A stretch of DNA of 64,000 nt from Bacteroidota bacterium (GCA_008933805.1 WBUH01000005.1:128822-192821); one strand, 5' to 3'; shown: positions 3,023 through 51,249, numbered from the stretch's first letter. Made by a program: numbers and translations. Notes: a model not told the origin generated them from the sequence alone.

Positions 3023-3098
3023 GCCGCAAGATAAAAGAATTGCTATCATCTTTTATCCGTCTGCAAACCTGCGCTTTTGTATTTTCGTTAAGTTAATA

Positions 3099-3815
3099 AT
3101 GAACAAACGCATTTTCATCGGAGCCATCGTTTTGCTGTTATTTTCCTGCAAGCAAACAGCAGAGAAACAAGAACTCCCCTCCTATTTCTGTCGACCTGAA
3201 CTGGAAACCTTTTTCGGCGGCTCAGATACATTGCCGGTGGTTACATTTTCTCCGAGTGATTCGTTTGGAAGTATTAAGCCATCATTTTTAAGACACTTTG
3301 ATTCTATTAGCGAGAATATTTCAATTAGAGTTCCGATAAGTATAGATAGCCTCAAAAAAACTGTATACGTTAAGACTACCTTCGAAAATCCATTTGTAAT
3401 TAAACCTATAGGATGCTATAGCCGAAGCAACATACTTAGAATACACCTTGATAATGATTCAATAACTATCAATAATGAAAATAAAATTCCTTATGATTCT
3501 CTGAAAAAACTCATCACAGCAGATATTCTAAACTACGGAAGAAATATGTATTTATCCGGAAGCCCCAACAAAATGGTAGTTATACTCAGATGGAATATGC
3601 AAATAAAAACAGAAGTTTTTAACCTGGCTTTAAAAAGCATTATCGACGGACACATCGAAGCTCTGAACATAACAAGTTCAAAGTATATTAATAAACACTT
3701 ATGCAGTATTACAAAAGATGATTTTACAAAACTTACTTCATCTTTCAGATTCAACTTAATTCTTGCTTTTCCTGAGATACCGAGCGAATATTTAATTTTC
3801 CCTTCTATTGGGTAG
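3099..3815 (+). CDS. Hypothetical lipoprotein (visibly AT-rich gene)
   Basis: ORF with signal peptide and lipobox LLLFSCKQ. Its composition is clearly more A/T-rich than its neighbours. No recognisable domain. Confidence 0.45.
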   Translation: MNKRIFIGAIVLLLFSCKQTAEKQELPSYFCRPELETFFGGSDTLPVVTFSPSDSFGSIKPSFLRHFDSISENISIRVPISIDSLKKTVYVKTTFENPFVIKPIGCYSRSNILRIHLDNDSITINNENKIPYDSLKKLITADILNYGRNMYLSGSPNKMVVILRWNMQIKTEVFNLALKSIIDGHIEALNITSSKYINKHLCSITKDDFTKLTSSFRFNLILAFPEIPSEYLIFPSIG

Positions 3816-3884
3816 TTAATCGTTAATCGAAAATTAATACCTCGCGAATTAGTTTCTCATATATTGCTGGTCAATATATTATCC

Positions 3885-4817
3885 ATGAAAAAACTTTTAC
3901 TTCTTTTTAGTCTATTGTGGCTTATTGCCCCCCAATTAAAAGCCGTTAACGAAGAGCCGGACAGTCTTTCAACAGAAAATGCTGAATTGCTTGATGCCCT
4001 TAAAGTGCTTGATTCTGCCCAACGCTTAAAATACCAAACCGGAACCGTTACCATTGGTGATGGACTGGCCACTATTAATGTTCCCAAAGGTTTTAAGTAT
4101 TTAGACCCTGAACAAACTGAGTTTGTGTTGCACAAACTATGGAACAACCCTCCCGGCGGCGGCTATTTGGGGATGTTGTTACTTGAGAATGCTGATTTAT
4201 TAGATTCAGCCTCGTGGGTGTTTACCATACAATACGACGCTATTGGCTACGTGAGCGATAAGGATGCTAACGAGGTTGATTATGAAGAGCTGCTGGCCGA
4301 CATGAAAAAAGAGTCAGAAGAAGAAAATAAAACCCGTGTGCAATTGGGTTATGAAGCCATGCATTTTATGGGCTGGGCATCAACCCCGTATTACGACGAA
4401 AACAAAAAGATATTACACTGGGCTAAAGAATTTAGCGTTGATGAAACCTCAACCAATACCCTCAACTACAATGTTCGCATATTAGGCCGCAAAGGTGTTT
4501 TGGTTTTAAATGCCATTGCTGCAATGCCACAGCTTGAGGATGTAAAAAAGAACATCGACCCGCTTACAAATGCTGTAGAGTTTAGCGCAGGCAATAAATA
4601 CAGTGATTTTAACCCCGATGTGGACGAAGTGGCTGCATGGACTATAGGCGGCTTGGTAGCAGGTAAAGTGCTTGCAAAAGCGGGTTTATTTGCCGGATTA
4701 GCAAAATTTGGCAAAGTAATCATCTTAGGCTTGATTGCCTTGGGTGCCGGAGCTGTTAAGCTGTTTAGGGGTAAGAAAAATAAAGAAACTGCTACCGACG
4801 GTAATACCACCGCATAA
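3885..4817 (+). CDS. DUF2167-family membrane-anchored protein
   Basis: Signal peptide, a conserved DUF2167-like body, and a C-terminal Gly/Ala-rich transmembrane segment (GGLVAGKVLAKAGLFAGLAKFGKVIILGLIALGAGA). Confidence 0.55.
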   Translation: MKKLLLLFSLLWLIAPQLKAVNEEPDSLSTENAELLDALKVLDSAQRLKYQTGTVTIGDGLATINVPKGFKYLDPEQTEFVLHKLWNNPPGGGYLGMLLLENADLLDSASWVFTIQYDAIGYVSDKDANEVDYEELLADMKKESEEENKTRVQLGYEAMHFMGWASTPYYDENKKILHWAKEFSVDETSTNTLNYNVRILGRKGVLVLNAIAAMPQLEDVKKNIDPLTNAVEFSAGNKYSDFNPDVDEVAAWTIGGLVAGKVLAKAGLFAGLAKFGKVIILGLIALGAGAVKLFRGKKNKETATDGNTTA

Positions 4818-21858: not shown

Positions 21859-21999
21859 ACCTCACAAAATTACGAGTTCCCAAAGTCAAAAATCAGGCCG
21901 CCAATACCGAATAATTATTCGGTACACCGATTATAAACCCTACCCCTGTTTTCCGTGCCTGCGGAAAGCCGCAATAAACTGACTACTCTATAGCACAAG

Positions 22000-22235
22000 C
22001 CGCTATCCACCAACAACTATCAACCACCAACATCCCCGACATCCGACATCTGACATCAGACATCCATCCCCACCAACAACCACCAACTATCAACCACCAC
22101 CACACCCCTGACATCCAACATCTGCCATCTGACATCCATCCCCACCAACAACCATCAACCATCAACAACCATCAACCATCAACTACCAACCAACAACACC
22201 CCCGACATCAAAAATTTCCTCCCCCACATTGCACA
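22000..22235. repeat. C/A-rich, G-poor degenerate tandem repeat of about 2.5 copies of a 65-75 bp unit built from CCACCAACAAC, CATCAACCA and GACATC(C/T)GACATC sub-motifs
   Basis: Read directly from the sequence. The strong strand asymmetry creates a spurious W/G-rich ORF on the minus strand. It sits immediately upstream of the head-like module. Confidence 0.7.
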
Positions 22236-32184: not shown

Positions 32185-32319
32185 AATAATGTTGCCAAAT
32201 CTTAAACAACAAGTCTCTATAGTTAAGATTTTTTAATAAAGTTTAATCAAAGATATATGTTATTTAAGAAAATGTCATTAAAACTTAAATTTAATTTTTT
32301 TTAGTTAAGAGGAACTTAA

Positions 32320-32360
32320 TTTAACTAAAAAAGCAGGCTGTGAGCCTGCTTTTTTAGTTA
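32320..32360. terminator. 41-nt perfect inverted repeat with 18-bp arms TTAACTAAAAAAGCAGGC/GCCTGCTTTTTTAGTTAA and a 5-nt loop
   Basis: Read directly from the sequence. It lies downstream of the SDR gene and upstream of the Fic gene, and A/T runs on both sides make it bidirectional. Confidence 0.65.
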
Positions 32361-32379
32361 AATTATATCGTGTTGCAAC

Positions 32380-33225: not shown

Positions 33226-33282
33226 TGTTATTTCTATTTATTGTTTAAACAACGTTTATACTGCAACGGTTTTGCCAAAAAC

Positions 33283-33310
33283 AAAAAAGCAGACACAAGG
33301 CCTGCTTTTT
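33283..33310 (-). terminator. Rho-independent terminator downstream of the E2 gene
   Basis: AAAAAAGCAG-loop-CTGCTTTTTT stem. Confidence 0.5.
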
Positions 33311-33334
33311 TACTGTTATATTTTTGTTAAACGA

Positions 33335-36072: not shown

Positions 36073-36579
36073 TTAAGCGGTTTGTTCTTCTGGTTTAAAA
36101 TTTTTGCTGCAAGCCGTGCAAGTGCCTGCATCGTCTAATTTTGGCGAACCAAACAAGTTTAGCGAGTGGCTGGTGATATCAAATTTCAGCAACTCACCCA
36201 TCATACTCTGTATTTGCTGTATACGGGGGTCGCAAAATTCAATCACATTATTACAACGGTTACAAATCAGGTGGTCGTGCTGGCGGTAACCGAAGCTACG
36301 TTCAAACTGAGCCATGTTTTTACCAAACTGGTGCTTGGTAACAAGGCCGCAATCCAGCAACAAATCAAGCGTGTTATACACCGTAGCCCTGCTAACATGG
36401 TAGTTGCGGTTCTTCATCTGTATGTATAACGACTCAACATCAAAATGCTCCTTTTTGCTGTATATCTCATCCAATATAGCATAACGTTCGGGCGTTTTGC
36501 GCTGCTTCTTTTGCTCAAGGTAATCTGTAAATATTTTACGTACTTCCTCTGGGGCAGTTTGTCGGCTCATTGTACTCAC
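36073..36579 (-). CDS. fur: Fur-family metalloregulator with a C-terminal Cys-containing extension
   Basis: Winged-helix DNA-binding N-domain and the HHDHLIC...C metal-binding site. An extra tail of about 25 aa carries C-x2-C. The gene lies 19 nt upstream of purA. Confidence 0.75.
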
Positions 36580-36735
36580 CTAAAATAAAAGGCAAAGGTA
36601 TCACTTTTAAAATTTATCGGTTTGAAGATTTGAGGATTTGTGGATTAGTATTTAATTATCAATAACTTGATTTATATTTATCTGTTCATCAAACTTGAAA
36701 CATTAAACTAAAAACTCTTGACTTATTTGGCAAAC

Positions 36736-36769
36736 AATTTGATGTTTAAACATTGATTTAGTATCTTTG
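36736..36769 (+). promoter_or_regulatory. Putative Bacteroidetes sigma-A promoter (-33 TTG, -7 TATCTTTG) overlapping the operator-like 26-mer AATTTGATGTTTAAACATTGATTTAG
   Basis: TAnnTTTG lies 16 nt upstream of the ATG at 36786. The 26-mer is about 77% identical to one at 50188-50213. Confidence 0.45.
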
Positions 36770-36785
36770 AGTAAATTATATCGGG

Positions 36786-37664
36786 ATGAAACGCTCGGAC
36801 TTTATAAAAACAGTAGGACTTGTTATGGCAACCACCCCTTTGATGGGCCTGAAAGATTGGCACAAAATAACTGAGAATGCAGAACCCACCGCAAAAGCAC
36901 CGCTTTTGTTCATAGGGCATGGCAATCCAATGAATGCCTTGTATAACAATACTTTTACCCAAACCCTAACTAAACTGGGCCAAACGGTTGAAAAACCCAA
37001 AGCAATATTGGTGGTTTCTGCCCATTGGCTCACCAACGGAACATGGGTAGCCACTACTGCAAAGCCTGAAACCATCCACGATTTCGGAGGATTCCCCCAA
37101 GCCTTGTTTGATGTGCAATACCCTGCACCTGGCTCTCCAACGTTTGCTACAGAAACACAAACGCTATTAAAAGATAAAACCACAGTTCAAGCGGATACAA
37201 GTTGGGGACTTGATCATGGTGCCTGGACTGTTCTAAAACACATATACCCCAATGCCGATGTACCCGTTTTTCAATTAAGTATTGATTACTCAAAGCCTCC
37301 CCAATACCACTACGACTTAGCAAAATACTTAGCTAAACTAAGGGACAAAGGGGTAATGATTTTGGGCAGTGGCAACATTGTACACAATTTGGGCCGTATA
37401 GATTGGAACAACCCCAACACGGGCTATGACTGGACTATTGAGTTTGACGAGGCGGTAAAAAAACATATTAATGATGGTAACCACCAGCCTTTGATTGATT
37501 ACATCACCCTTACTAAAGGAGCTAATTTGGCCGTACCCACTAACGACCATTATTTGCCTTTGCTATATACATTGGCCTTGCAGGATGCAAAAGAAAAGCC
37601 CTCGCATATATACGAGGGCAATGAAATGGGTAGCATTAGTATGCGTAGTGTATTGTTTAGCTAA
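36786..37664 (+). CDS. 4,5-DOPA dioxygenase extradiol (DODA / YgiD) family protein with a Tat-like signal
   Basis: Conserved LFIGHGNPMNAL, SAHW and LDHGAW motifs of class III extradiol dioxygenases. Confidence 0.75.
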   Translation: MKRSDFIKTVGLVMATTPLMGLKDWHKITENAEPTAKAPLLFIGHGNPMNALYNNTFTQTLTKLGQTVEKPKAILVVSAHWLTNGTWVATTAKPETIHDFGGFPQALFDVQYPAPGSPTFATETQTLLKDKTTVQADTSWGLDHGAWTVLKHIYPNADVPVFQLSIDYSKPPQYHYDLAKYLAKLRDKGVMILGSGNIVHNLGRIDWNNPNTGYDWTIEFDEAVKKHINDGNHQPLIDYITLTKGANLAVPTNDHYLPLLYTLALQDAKEKPSHIYEGNEMGSISMRSVLFS

Positions 37665-48309: not shown

Positions 48310-48389
48310 TTTCTTAGTCTTCTGTTTTAAGTTTACAGTTTTAAGTTATTATGCTGCTTACCCGATAACGGATAACCGATATAACCAAC

Positions 48390-48794: not shown

Positions 48795-48898
48795 GATTTT
48801 AGTTTCAAGTTTTTAGTTTTCAGTTTCAAGTTGCTTTTGGCAACCACATCAATGTATATAATTTGCACATTATCAAATTTGCACATCGGCACATTTGA

Positions 48899-50113: not shown

Positions 50114-50187
50114 TGTGTGCAGAATTTGACTTATTTAGACTAATTCTAACTACAAAGGTAGTAATGATTTTGTTCATTCAACAAAAA

Positions 50188-50240
50188 AATTTGATGTTTG
50201 AACGTTGTAATTGTTGATTGCTTGATTTGCTGATTTGTGT
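50188..50240. promoter_or_regulatory. 26-mer AATTTGATGTTTGAACGTTGTAATTG followed by three 9-bp-periodic (C)TGATTTG repeats
   Basis: Read directly from the sequence. Both elements also occur in the fur/DODA intergenic region (36619-36646 and 36736-36761). Confidence 0.45.
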
Positions 50241-50277
50241 ATTAATGAATAACCTTGCCAAACTAAAACTCACCCAA

Positions 50278-50682
50278 ATGTTTGGCAAAATTGAACACCT
50301 TGGCATAGCCGTTAAAGACCTTACCCTTAGCAATACCTTGTTTGAAAAGCTTTTGGGTACCGCACCCTACAAGCAAGAAGCCGTTGAAAGCGAAAATGTA
50401 ATCACATCATTTTTTAAGGCGGGTGAGAACAAAATCGAACTATTACAAGCCACCCACCCTGATAGTGCCATTGCAAAGTTTATTGAAAAAAAAGGCGAAG
50501 GTATACACCACGTAGCCTTTGATGTGGAGGATATTTATGCCGAAATAGAACGCCTAAAGGCAGAAGGCTTTGTGTTTATTAATGAAACGCCTAAAGATGG
50601 TGCCGACAATAAACTAATCGCCTTCCTACATCCAAAAAGCACCAACGGTATGCTGGTAGAGTTGTGCATGGAGAAGAAGTGA
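50278..50682 (+). CDS. mce: Methylmalonyl-CoA epimerase (VOC/glyoxalase fold)
   Basis: IEHLGIAV ... GIHHVAF ... metal ligands, and the typical 134-aa size. The start is set at MFGKIEH. Confidence 0.8.
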   Translation: MFGKIEHLGIAVKDLTLSNTLFEKLLGTAPYKQEAVESENVITSFFKAGENKIELLQATHPDSAIAKFIEKKGEGIHHVAFDVEDIYAEIERLKAEGFVFINETPKDGADNKLIAFLHPKSTNGMLVELCMEKK

Positions 50683-50685
50683 GCT

Positions 50686-51249
50686 ATGAAAACTCTTTTC
50701 GAAGATAAAATAATACGTTTGGTTGACATGTCGGCAGAGAACACAGCTTTTTTGTTGGCAAACAGCGTACAAAAGCAATTTGCCAAAGGCGATGTAATAG
50801 CTGTTGAGGGCAAAGTATGCACTAACTGTTGGTTTATTGAAGATGGTTATTTACGAGCTACTACTACAAAAGACGGGAAAGAAATACACCTTAATTTTTG
50901 GCTTGAAGACACTTTTGCTAGCAACCTAAAAAGTATGCGCACCCAAGCCGTTTCTGAGTTTTCTATCGTAGCGGGTGAAAAAACGAGGGTGAGGGAGTTT
51001 GAAGGAGCAATGCTGCTGAAACTTTATGAACGCTCGCCGCAGTTCGAGTCGTTTGGCCGCAAGCTGCTTGAAGAACTTCTGATAGAACAGGAAGAACATA
51101 TCAACCTGTTTAAACTTACCACCCCAACCGAACGCTACCAATATATTGTAAAACATAAGCCTAAGCTATTGCAACGCATTTCACTTACTATGTTATCATC
51201 GTATTTGGGTATTAGCAGGGAAACATTGAGTAGAATAAGAAAGCGGTAA
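50686..51249 (+). CDS. Crp/Fnr-family transcriptional regulator
   Basis: cNMP-binding beta-roll followed by a C-terminal helix-turn-helix (LSSYLGISRETLSRIRK). Confidence 0.8.
   Translation: MKTLFEDKIIRLVDMSAENTAFLLANSVQKQFAKGDVIAVEGKVCTNCWFIEDGYLRATTTKDGKEIHLNFWLEDTFASNLKSMRTQAVSEFSIVAGEKTRVREFEGAMLLKLYERSPQFESFGRKLLEELLIEQEEHINLFKLTTPTERYQYIVKHKPKLLQRISLTMLSSYLGISRETLSRIRKR

Follow-up and report, generated by a model that had tools for sequence, protein, structure and literature searches.

The 64,000-nucleotide stretch of Bacteroidota DNA analysed here (hereafter the window; GCA_008933805.1 WBUH01000005.1:128822-192821) contains two intergenic regions that carry related sequence elements, one between a Fur-family gene (fur) and a divergent DODA gene (region 1), and the other between iscS and mce (region 2). 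The question raised by this locus is whether the elements form a set of operators through which a single regulator would control both groups of genes. A sequence-only reading had proposed such a set for fur/purA and iscSUA, consisting of a 26-mer with an internal palindrome and an array of GATTTG repeats, with Fur itself or an IscR-like factor as its possible regulator. The gene calls for fur, for purA downstream of it, for DODA (a LigB-type 4,5-DOPA extradiol dioxygenase with its ATG at 36786) and for iscS, iscU and iscA were supported by Pfam and NCBIfam. The mce gene, encoding methylmalonyl-CoA epimerase, lies on the opposite strand upstream of iscS and is followed by a gene for a cNMP-binding protein, calls that had the same support. 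Based upon alignment, the start of fur is most likely the ATG at 36570 rather than the GTG at 36579, and that of mce most likely the ATG at 50278(+), which would give the 134-residue product called in relatives (134-136 amino acids in most, 145 in L092). Comparison of Fur-based loci from reference genomes assigned the window to a Bacteroidia lineage that is uncultured and close to Sphingobacteriales; the related genomes compared (loci numbered from L001) are few and phylogenetically nested. No Rfam match was obtained at gathering score across the whole window, and a scan of the fur-DODA spacer for sigma-70 promoters and terminators yielded nothing informative, as is usual in this phylum.

The repeats reported for the two intergenic regions are real, and each quoted string was found in place. 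Region 1 contains the array GGTTTGAAGATTTGAGGATTTGTGGATTAG at 36619-36648 and the 26-mer AATTTGATGTTTAAACATTGATTTAG at 36736-36761, inside which lies the perfect palindrome ATGTTTAAACAT, and related sequences occupy 50188-50244 in region 2. The 26-mers of the two regions are identical at 20 of 26 bases, the best ungapped block (36732-36755 against 50184-50207) at 21 of 24, and the arrays (36627-36647 against 50224-50244) at 18 of 21. The arrangement was not as first described. The GATTTG units are spaced by 8 bp and not 9, starting at 36619/27/35/43 and 50216/24/32 with a period of 8 assigned to both arrays by TRF, and the elements do not follow the same order, which is array, about 85 bp, 26-mer in region 1 and 26-mer, 8 bp, array in region 2. 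With one mismatch or fewer, AATTTGATGTTNNAACATTG occurred at only two sites in the window, the 26-mer pair, and never in 100 shuffles, and GATTTGNNGATTTG gave five matches against 0.68 expected. When the 27 intergenic regions of the window were compared all against all, the fur-DODA/isc-mce pair ranked only about 3rd to 5th, so the resemblance on its own is weak evidence and is not exceptional; other pairs of low-complexity regions scored equally high, and the iscS-iscU and iscU-iscA spacers are as similar to the fur-DODA spacer as the isc-mce spacer is. The two regions also have in common an exact 11-mer, TTGACTTATTT (36718-28 and 50126-36), which was considered as a meaningful third shared element and was treated as chance because the region 1 copy is not kept in the close relatives L001 or L002. 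Intergenic DNA of this genome is rich in low-complexity tandem repeats of short period.

These comparisons bear directly on the proposal that nothing functional is shared, the likeness being a coincidence of low-complexity, TTG-rich promoter DNA and microsatellites born of slippage. The modest rank of the pair, the equal similarity of the two internal isc spacers, the abundance of short-period tandem arrays in the intergenic DNA of this genome and the lack of conservation of the 11-mer are all as it would predict, but this one pair of regions shows two separate similarities, the cores of the arrays are conserved across lineages, and the isc copy matches exactly the part of region 1 that is under the strongest selection. 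Coincidence is a possible but somewhat doubtful account.

In Bacteroidota promoters about 19-21 nt separate a TTTG at -33 from a TAnnTTTG at -7, an arrangement reportedly found in promoters of Bacteroides fragilis and Flavobacterium. The -7/-33 architecture in Bacteroidota is mentioned in PMC5609570. In the 64-kb window TTTG-N19-21-TANNTTTG is matched in full just four times, DODA and iscS accounting for two of these (Table 1). The full match before DODA, TTTG-N20-TATCTTTG, indicates that the 26-mer comprises the DODA -33 box together with its spacer, and the earlier identification of TATCTTTG as a -7 box is borne out, since it is of the Bacteroidota TAnnTTTG type. This geometry is kept in L001, L002, L087, L089 and L090, and not in L088. 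Likeness to the Bacteroidota sigma-A promoter extends to iscS, with the full match TTTG-N21-TACCTTTG, to mce, with TTTG-N20-TAACCTTG, and to fur, which has a -7 box; fur differs in that no -33 TTTG was found on its own strand at its promoter. A further difference is that at mce and fur the TTTG hexamer is repeated three to four times in 8-bp phase, which lies outside the described consensus. The fur-DODA spacer would contain a fur and a DODA promoter placed back to back, both of the Bacteroidota type. Positions relative to the transcription starts of fur, DODA, iscS and mce were inferred from these -7 boxes, with predicted starts near 36587(-), 36775(+), 50147(-) and 50263(+), respectively.

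Conservation in the close relatives follows the same division. The block from 36662 down to the fur ATG, which holds the array and the fur promoter, is nearly identical in the window, L001 and L002, as is the block that holds the DODA promoter and operator, and the roughly 75 bp between these two conserved blocks are scrambled in L001 and L002, at a silent-site divergence of 0.16-0.30. The DODA block also includes a TGGC that is invariant in 7/7 DODA promoters of the lineage and is missing from the isc copy. A sigma-54 reading of TGGCAA-N5-TTGAT was rejected, the -12 position being TTGA and not TTGC in all orthologues.

Table 1. Positions, strands and bases of the genes and predicted cis-elements in and around the two intergenic regions, with the isc 20-mer as it stands in relatives.
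Feature	Position	Strand	Remarks
fur	36073-36579	-	Fur-family gene
fur -7 box TACCTTTG	36593..36600	-	TAnnTTTG type
GATTTG array at fur, four units: GGTTTGAA GATTTGAG GATTTGTG GATTAG	36619..36648	+	8-bp period
TGGC, 6 nt upstream of DODA -33 box	36728..36731	+	within conserved DODA block TGGCAAaCaATTTGAT
DODA core promoter	36738..36769	+	-33 TTTG 36738-41, 20-nt spacer, -7 TATCTTTG 36762-69
12-bp palindrome ATGTTTAAACAT (ATGTT-NN-AACAT)	36742..36753	.	in DODA promoter spacer, between -33 and -7
DODA	36786-37664	+	LigB-type dioxygenase gene
iscS, iscU, iscA	50113-47983	-	
Candidate Fur box AGTTAGAATTAGTCTAAAT	50133..50151	-	directly 3' of iscS -7 box, over the predicted start
iscS core promoter	50153..50185	-	-33 TTTG 50185-82, 21-nt spacer, -7 TACCTTTG 50160-53
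DODA-element look-alike AATTTGATGTTTGAACGTTG	50188..50207	+	degenerate palindrome ATGTTTGAACGT at 50194-50205
GATTTG array at mce: GATTGCTT GATTTGCT GATTTGTG	50216..50239	+	8-bp period
Putative mce -7 box TAACCTTG	50250..50257	+	one mismatch to TAnnTTTG; conserved in relatives
isc 20-mer, L084			..GATGGTTGAACGTTG
isc 20-mer, L081			..GATGTTTGAACGCTATCC, then ~150 bp insertion
isc 20-mer, L085			AATTTATTGTTTACACATTG
isc 20-mer, L092			AATTTAATGTTTACACAAGG
isc 20-mer, L093 and L086			nothing comparable

The palindrome in the DODA promoter spacer was followed through the orthologous loci. Its arms, ATGTT and AACAT, are invariant in L001, L002, L087, L088, L089 and L090, and its centre alternates between TA and GC among the seven promoters of the lineage; because both dinucleotides are self-complementary, the dyad symmetry is kept despite the change. 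Every orthologous locus has the block TGGCAAaCaATTTGATGTT-(TA or GC)-AACATTGATT ... TAnnTTTG, which is present at DODA identities of 85, 80, 73 and 70%, comparisons in which the divergence from the window at four-fold sites is 0.54-0.69 and hence saturated. L087, L089 and L090 carry the 20-mer AATTTGATGTTnnAACATTG without any change, and L088 keeps the palindrome with one change in the flank. The gene upstream of DODA in L088 is an MmeI gene instead of fur, yet the palindromic element is present, and the fur promoters of L003-L005, which have no DODA neighbour, lack it. The 26-mer therefore follows DODA, and its assignment to fur/purA does not hold. The motif form cAATTTGATGTTnnAACATTGAT covers the DODA element, including the 12-bp core. 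The same class of palindrome was also sought upstream of more distant DODA genes, in 80 loci (49-57% identity) among the metagenome matches listed; the listed matches supplied no additional close fur promoters. In the 130 bp upstream of DODA in these 80 listed loci, TGT-N4-ACA occurred at 1.96 per kb against 0.21 per kb elsewhere, an enrichment of about ten-fold; TTTGTATATACAAA, overlapping the -7 box TACATTTG, was present in eleven of them, TTGTTGCAACAA in two and AATGTTGCAACATTG in one. A further palindrome form named upstream of DODA, beside TTTGTATATACAAA, is ATGTTGCAACAT.

Conservation where silent sites are saturated, linkage to DODA and enrichment of the class upstream of distant DODA genes together argue that the palindrome is an operator of the DODA gene for a dimeric regulator, a conclusion that is well supported by these sequence comparisons; the earlier proposal that the palindrome is a genuine regulator site holds. 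A dimeric transcription factor would bind the 12 bp, block RNA polymerase and repress DODA, a repressor role being the simplest reading of a site in this position.

Which protein would bind this operator was approached through operator shape and gene neighbourhood. The AraR box has the sequence ATTTGTACGTACAAAT. A literature search with the palindrome strings found only the TreR box, TTGTATATACAA / ATGTATATACAA (PMC11356801). Operators of this GntR/HutC group resemble the DODA site in being perfect palindromes of 12-16 bp with a TGT-N4-ACA core, in their A/T-rich or self-complementary centre and in their placement over the core promoter, and in distant DODA genes the string is literally TTTGTATATACAAA. 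This likeness is one of operator shape alone and is not proof of family, and a GntR-family gene was found neither beside DODA in 18 distant loci nor among the 25 commonest families listed for the genes of the window; such a gene may lie elsewhere in the genome. The same 18 distant loci had no consistent regulator gene of any kind beside DODA. Within the lineage of the window the only regulator adjoining DODA is fur, which is divergent to it in 5/6 contexts, and for this reason Fur itself is a possible binder of the palindrome. A comparable link between an extradiol dioxygenase gene and an iron regulator exists in Bacillus subtilis, where the catechol extradiol dioxygenase operon catDE is reportedly under Fur and MarR/DUF24 control (PMC6212828). 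DODA is divergent to fur in most genomes of the lineage, but here the link is gene adjacency alone, DODA has no Fur-type box, and its enzyme family, of the LigB/YgiD type, is a different one. Two other identities for the site were set aside: the Bacteroidota LexA-like motifs GGA-N5-TCC and CTAA-N5-TTAG (PMC8565304) do not fit the palindrome, and resemblance of TGTGGATTA to a DnaA box (8/9 to TTATCCACA) was treated as coincidence, the isc copy and the relatives giving a poorer match.

The copy of this element in region 2 has a different history. It sits just upstream of the iscS -33 box, at about -39 to -58 from the predicted iscS start and about -56 to -75 from that of mce, in the variable middle of the isc-mce spacer between the conserved iscS promoter/leader and the mce promoter. 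Compared with the cross-species DODA consensus, it matches at 17/18 fixed positions, and its counterparts in L085 and L092 at 15/18 and 14/18. Relatives keep the left half together with the A/T run beside it; the right half drifts, reading AACGTT, AACGCT, ACACAT or ACACAA, and no palindrome is maintained. The isc 20-mer has changed at 5/20 and 6/20 positions where silent-site divergence is 0.46-0.49, and since this is less change than at silent sites, some constraint is possible and the same factor may bind. An FNR/CRP-type reading (TTGAT-N4-ATCAA), prompted by the cNMP-binding gene beside mce, was dropped, as inspection by eye showed the second half-site to be missing in both copies.

Constraint of this kind would be expected if the DODA regulator had a two-member regulon, also binding 50194-50205 and modulating iscS and/or mce from upstream as an activator or anti-activator, with the arrays as unrelated promoter parts. 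The close match to the DODA consensus, which occurred in none of 100 shuffles at one mismatch or fewer, the matches that persist in L085 and L092 and the slower change than at silent sites agree with such a regulon. Several features of the copy speak against it: its symmetry is lost and its right half differs in every sub-lineage, L084 has also changed in the left half, L081 has lost the distal third to an insertion, L093 and L086 have no copy, and conservation within the isc-mce spacer is lowest at the copy, in contrast to the invariant DODA site. Some of the conservation that is seen can moreover be put down to the A/T tract adjoining the iscS -33 box. A regulon of these two members is thus considered rather unlikely, and the isc copy is better described as a degenerate, weakly constrained counterpart of the DODA element, which as a site is probably weak or in decay.

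The second class of shared element, the GATTTG arrays, is covered at both loci by the unit form GATTTGNN, and the two arrays are the only ones of period 8 that TRF found in the window. The array at fur, which is of CAAATC type when read in the direction of fur and spans about -32 to -63 relative to the predicted fur start, is identical in L002 and differs by one base in L001. L003 and L004, in which Fur is 89% identical and DODA is not a neighbour, have two GATTTG units and a GATAAG unit at positions within 1 bp of those of units 2-4; there the hexamer cores are intact and the 2-bp spacers have changed. No fur array is present in L005, L089 or L090. At mce, likewise, the window and L085/L092 share the hexamer cores and differ in the spacers, and this conservation of cores with free spacers argues for a function of the arrays. 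For one unit a function can be proposed from its position. The TTTG of unit 2 of the mce array (50226-29) stands exactly 20 nt upstream of TAACCTTG, the arrangement (T/C)TTG-N20-TAACCTTG is kept in 6/7 of the isc-mce regions compared (in the seventh, L086, mce is no longer adjacent), and AATAACCTTG is conserved in the window, L084, L081, L085, L092 and L093. Because L081 and L093 keep this -33/-7 geometry despite an insertion that has removed the rest of the array, we infer that unit 2 supplies the mce -33 box. The arrays would then be 8-bp-phased repeats of a TTTG hexamer that form part of the promoter architecture. At fur the array is inverted and occupies a position where an upstream element or an activator or repressor would act, but its role there is a guess, as TTTG is absent from the fur strand and a divergent -7 box could not be made out convincingly. 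The possibility that the fur array serves as the -33 box of a divergent promoter on the plus strand was considered and rejected; no -7 box is conserved, the candidate TAGTATTT having two mismatches and no equivalent in L003/L004.

How the arrays are distributed has a bearing on whether a dedicated protein might read direct hexamer repeats at 8-bp phase and control fur and mce/isc together. Three genome lineages (the window, L002 and L003) have arrays at fur as well as at isc/mce, and the L005 genome has them at neither; this joint presence and absence, more easily reconciled with a shared factor than with independent promoter parts, hints at a link between the loci. The distribution otherwise comes close to random scatter with no tie to iron or Fe-S genes, which would count against a shared regulator site: same-class arrays lie upstream of unrelated genes (near 2860 in L005, and in L064) and, in L088, once between convergent gene ends. 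The conserved cores with variable spacers at both loci and the fixed positions of units 2-4 upstream of fur, across a silent-site divergence of about 0.47, would also suit a dedicated protein. Against it, sites that follow one another at 8-bp phase lie on different faces of the helix, the mce -33 box accounts for one unit, the only one that mce keeps in L081, and the sample is small and drawn from related genomes. To our knowledge, no factor family matches direct hexamer repeats in 8-bp phase. A dedicated array protein is therefore judged unlikely, and the arrays are taken as probable promoter parts.

Neither class of element resembles the operators of the regulators first suggested. The classical Fur box GATAATGATAATCATTATC gave a best score of 12/19 in both regions, compared with 12-13 in other intergenic regions, and its 7-1-7 form TGATAATnATTATCA a best of 9/14 compared with 9-10 elsewhere, in agreement with the earlier remark that the canonical Fur box is a different motif. 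The GATTTG arrays are like the classical GATAAT arrays in being direct hexamer repeats near a promoter, adjoining a fur gene; they differ in phase (8 bp against 6 bp) and in three positions of the hexamer, and a search for at least three NAT(A/T)AT units at 6-bp phase found only GATTTG units at 8-bp phase. The IscR consensus is ATASYYGACTRWWWYAGTCRRSTAT for type 1 sites and AxxxCCxxAxxxxxxxTAxGGxxxT for type 2. For type 1 the two regions scored 18/25 and 16/25 where intergenic DNA elsewhere gave 16-17, and neither L001 nor L002 keeps the 18/25 site; type 2 scores were 6/9, compared with 6-7 elsewhere. No gene for an Rrf2-family regulator was found among the annotated neighbours of the isc operon. 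The suggestion of a Fur or IscR-like site in the 26-mer or the arrays thus finds no support above intergenic background.

A much better candidate Fur box, absent from the elements of the sequence-only reading, lies elsewhere in the isc promoter. The iscS core promoter holds the inverted repeat AATGA-N6-TCATT in its spacer (50163-50178), and AATGAACAAAATCATTAsTAyCTTTG is near-invariant in L081, L084, L085 and L086, with one or two bases varying in L092 and L093. Directly downstream of its -7 box, AGTTAGAATTAGTCTAAAT is the most conserved block of the promoter. The Fur box of Riemerella anatipestifer is ATTTAGAATTATTCTAAAT, for which EMSA with four promoters gave support (Guo et al. 2017, PMC5609570), and AGTTAGAATTAGTCTAAAT matches it at 17/19 positions, other intergenic regions reaching no more than 13. 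It is palindromic and overlaps the predicted start as a repressor site would, whereas the 26-mer and arrays do not match the Riemerella box and the best site in the fur-DODA spacer, at 11/19, is at background. A search of 1.48 Mb of sequence (window plus loci) for the core TTAGAATNATTCTAA, with one mismatch or fewer, gave iscS promoters as its only hits. Seven of the 13 near-matches with two mismatches at other loci were inspected and discarded, all being within ORFs or at their extreme end. The box is kept as TTAGATTTATTCTAA at the same position in L176/L177 (IscS 84% identity) and in all other relatives examined except Hymenobacter, the most distant. The pattern form of the element is TTAGAATnATTCTAA. 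Iron control of isc would run through this separate box over the iscS start, and any Fur control of isc is most likely exerted there rather than through the 26-mer or the arrays.

The shared operator set, in which one lineage-specific regulator (Fur or IscR-like) would bind both 26-mer and arrays and co-regulate fur/purA (and DODA) with iscSUA, can be weighed against these results. Within the window each element is indeed confined to the two intergenic regions and present in both, and the divergent placement of fur and DODA in most contexts, together with the joint presence and absence of the arrays, agrees with it. Its components separate on comparison, however: the 26-mer goes with DODA and not with fur, the isc copy is neither kept as a palindrome nor retained in L093 and L086, and the order and orientation of the elements relative to the genes differ between the loci. 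Both elements are at intergenic background for the classical Fur, Riemerella-type Fur and IscR type 1 and 2 sites, the isc promoter has its far better Fur-box match elsewhere, and similar arrays occur at unrelated genes. The proposal in this form is very unlikely. Still less probable, in our estimate, is a more elaborate version in which the arrays would be operators of an undescribed DNA-binding protein that, with the palindrome factor, couples fur, DODA and isc/mce in a lineage-specific iron/Fe-S circuit on top of a conventional iscS Fur box.

The explanation preferred, and one that we hold to be reasonably probable, comprises an operator in the DODA promoter, arrays that are promoter parts, a degenerate isc copy of the DODA element and a separate Fur box at iscS. 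The interpretation given by the sequence-only reading is in this respect partly supported, and the elements are all cis-elements of ordinary kinds.

The recurrence of the TGT-N4-ACA operator upstream of DODA across distant Bacteroidota suggests that one regulator may control this widespread DODA-type gene. With a Riemerella-type Fur box positioned over the iscS start, Fe-S cluster assembly by the ISC system is predicted to be controlled directly by Fur in a group that has no iscR beside the operon, and the TTTG-hexamer arrays appear to be a recurring piece of promoter architecture. No general principle is changed by these elements; as three testable cis-elements they may be useful for the reconstruction of regulons in Bacteroidota, where few operators are known.

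The iscS -7 box is immediately followed, on its 3' side, by a candidate Fur box, AGTTAGAATTAGTCTAAAT, which matches the Fur box of Riemerella anatipestifer at 17 of 19 positions. This element occupies the corresponding position in the related loci L081-L086, L092-L095 and L176-L177, and is kept down to an IscS identity of 84%. As judged from sequence, it is probably a Fur operator of the isc operon. The spacer of the iscS promoter contains an inverted repeat, AATGA-N6-TCATT, that is unchanged in L081, L084, L085 and L086, carries one or two base changes in L092 and L093, and is absent from L176. This repeat is a candidate second operator. In three relatives, insertions with hairpins of the CCCTCCC/GGGAGGG type, each about 150 bp long, separate the divergent iscS and mce (methylmalonyl-CoA epimerase) promoters; they have the appearance of small mobile elements or REP-like elements, and the inserted DNA seems to supply mce with a -33 (C)TTG of its own. 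A gene for a Crp/Fnr-like cNMP-binding protein is found near mce-isc in several relatives, not in all, and its product could be a local regulator; no HTH was detected in it by Pfam.

Positions of sequence features in the window and in comparison loci (L-numbers)
Feature	Position	Strand	Remarks
Candidate Fur box AGTTAGAATTAGTCTAAAT	50133-50151	minus	
Inverted repeat	50163-50178		
iscS-mce insertions	L081 ~3760-3910; L093 ~2790-2950; L086 ~3780-3950		
cNMP-binding protein gene	50686-51249; L092 181-744; L177 19-594		~187-191 aa product
TGTGGATTA	36641-36649		array end; reverse complement 8/9 to DnaA box TTATCCACA
TGTGTATTA	50238-50246		array end, isc side; 7/9 to DnaA box
TGGC	36728-36731		6 nt 5' of DODA -33 box
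TonB-dependent receptor gene	L096 and L123, 62-2605	minus	divergent from DODA at 3046
7-bp-period arrays	48797-48832; ~48320-48350		immediately 5' of iscU and iscA start codons
C/A-rich complex tandem repeats	21960-22200		inside 405-bp intergenic region

On the coding strand, the 7-bp-period arrays are rich in A and C (TTGAAAC TGAAAAC TAAAAAC ...), and part of the spacer between fur and DODA (36687-36715) is similar to them. Bacteroidota lack Shine-Dalgarno sequences and typically have A-rich translation leaders; the iscU and iscA arrays may be unstructured leaders of this type. The complex tandem repeats have periods of 7, 10, 14, 17 and 72 bp, with CCGACAT and ACCAACA among their units. The top-scoring intergenic pair of the window, 32185-32379 and 33226-33334, shares AAAAAAGCAGGC...GCCTGCTTTTTT hairpins that are likely bidirectional intrinsic terminators. 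The resemblance of TGTGGATTA and TGTGTATTA to DnaA boxes is probably coincidental.

The TGGC upstream of the promoter of DODA, a LigB-type extradiol dioxygenase gene, is the same in all seven lineage promoters. With its downstream sequence (TGGCAA-N5-TTGAT) it resembles a sigma-54 -24/-12 element, except that position -12 holds A in place of the essential C. Divergence at four-fold sites between DODA in the window (36786-37664) and in L001 (8905-9783) is 0.54, against 0.25-0.30 for fur and iscS in the same pair of genomes, which suggests that DODA has been recombined or replaced while its promoter/operator stayed identical. In two distant loci, DODA and a TonB-dependent receptor gene form a divergent pair; this pairing and the adjacency to fur in the window lineage together hint that DODA is connected with the metabolism of iron or of catechol siderophores.
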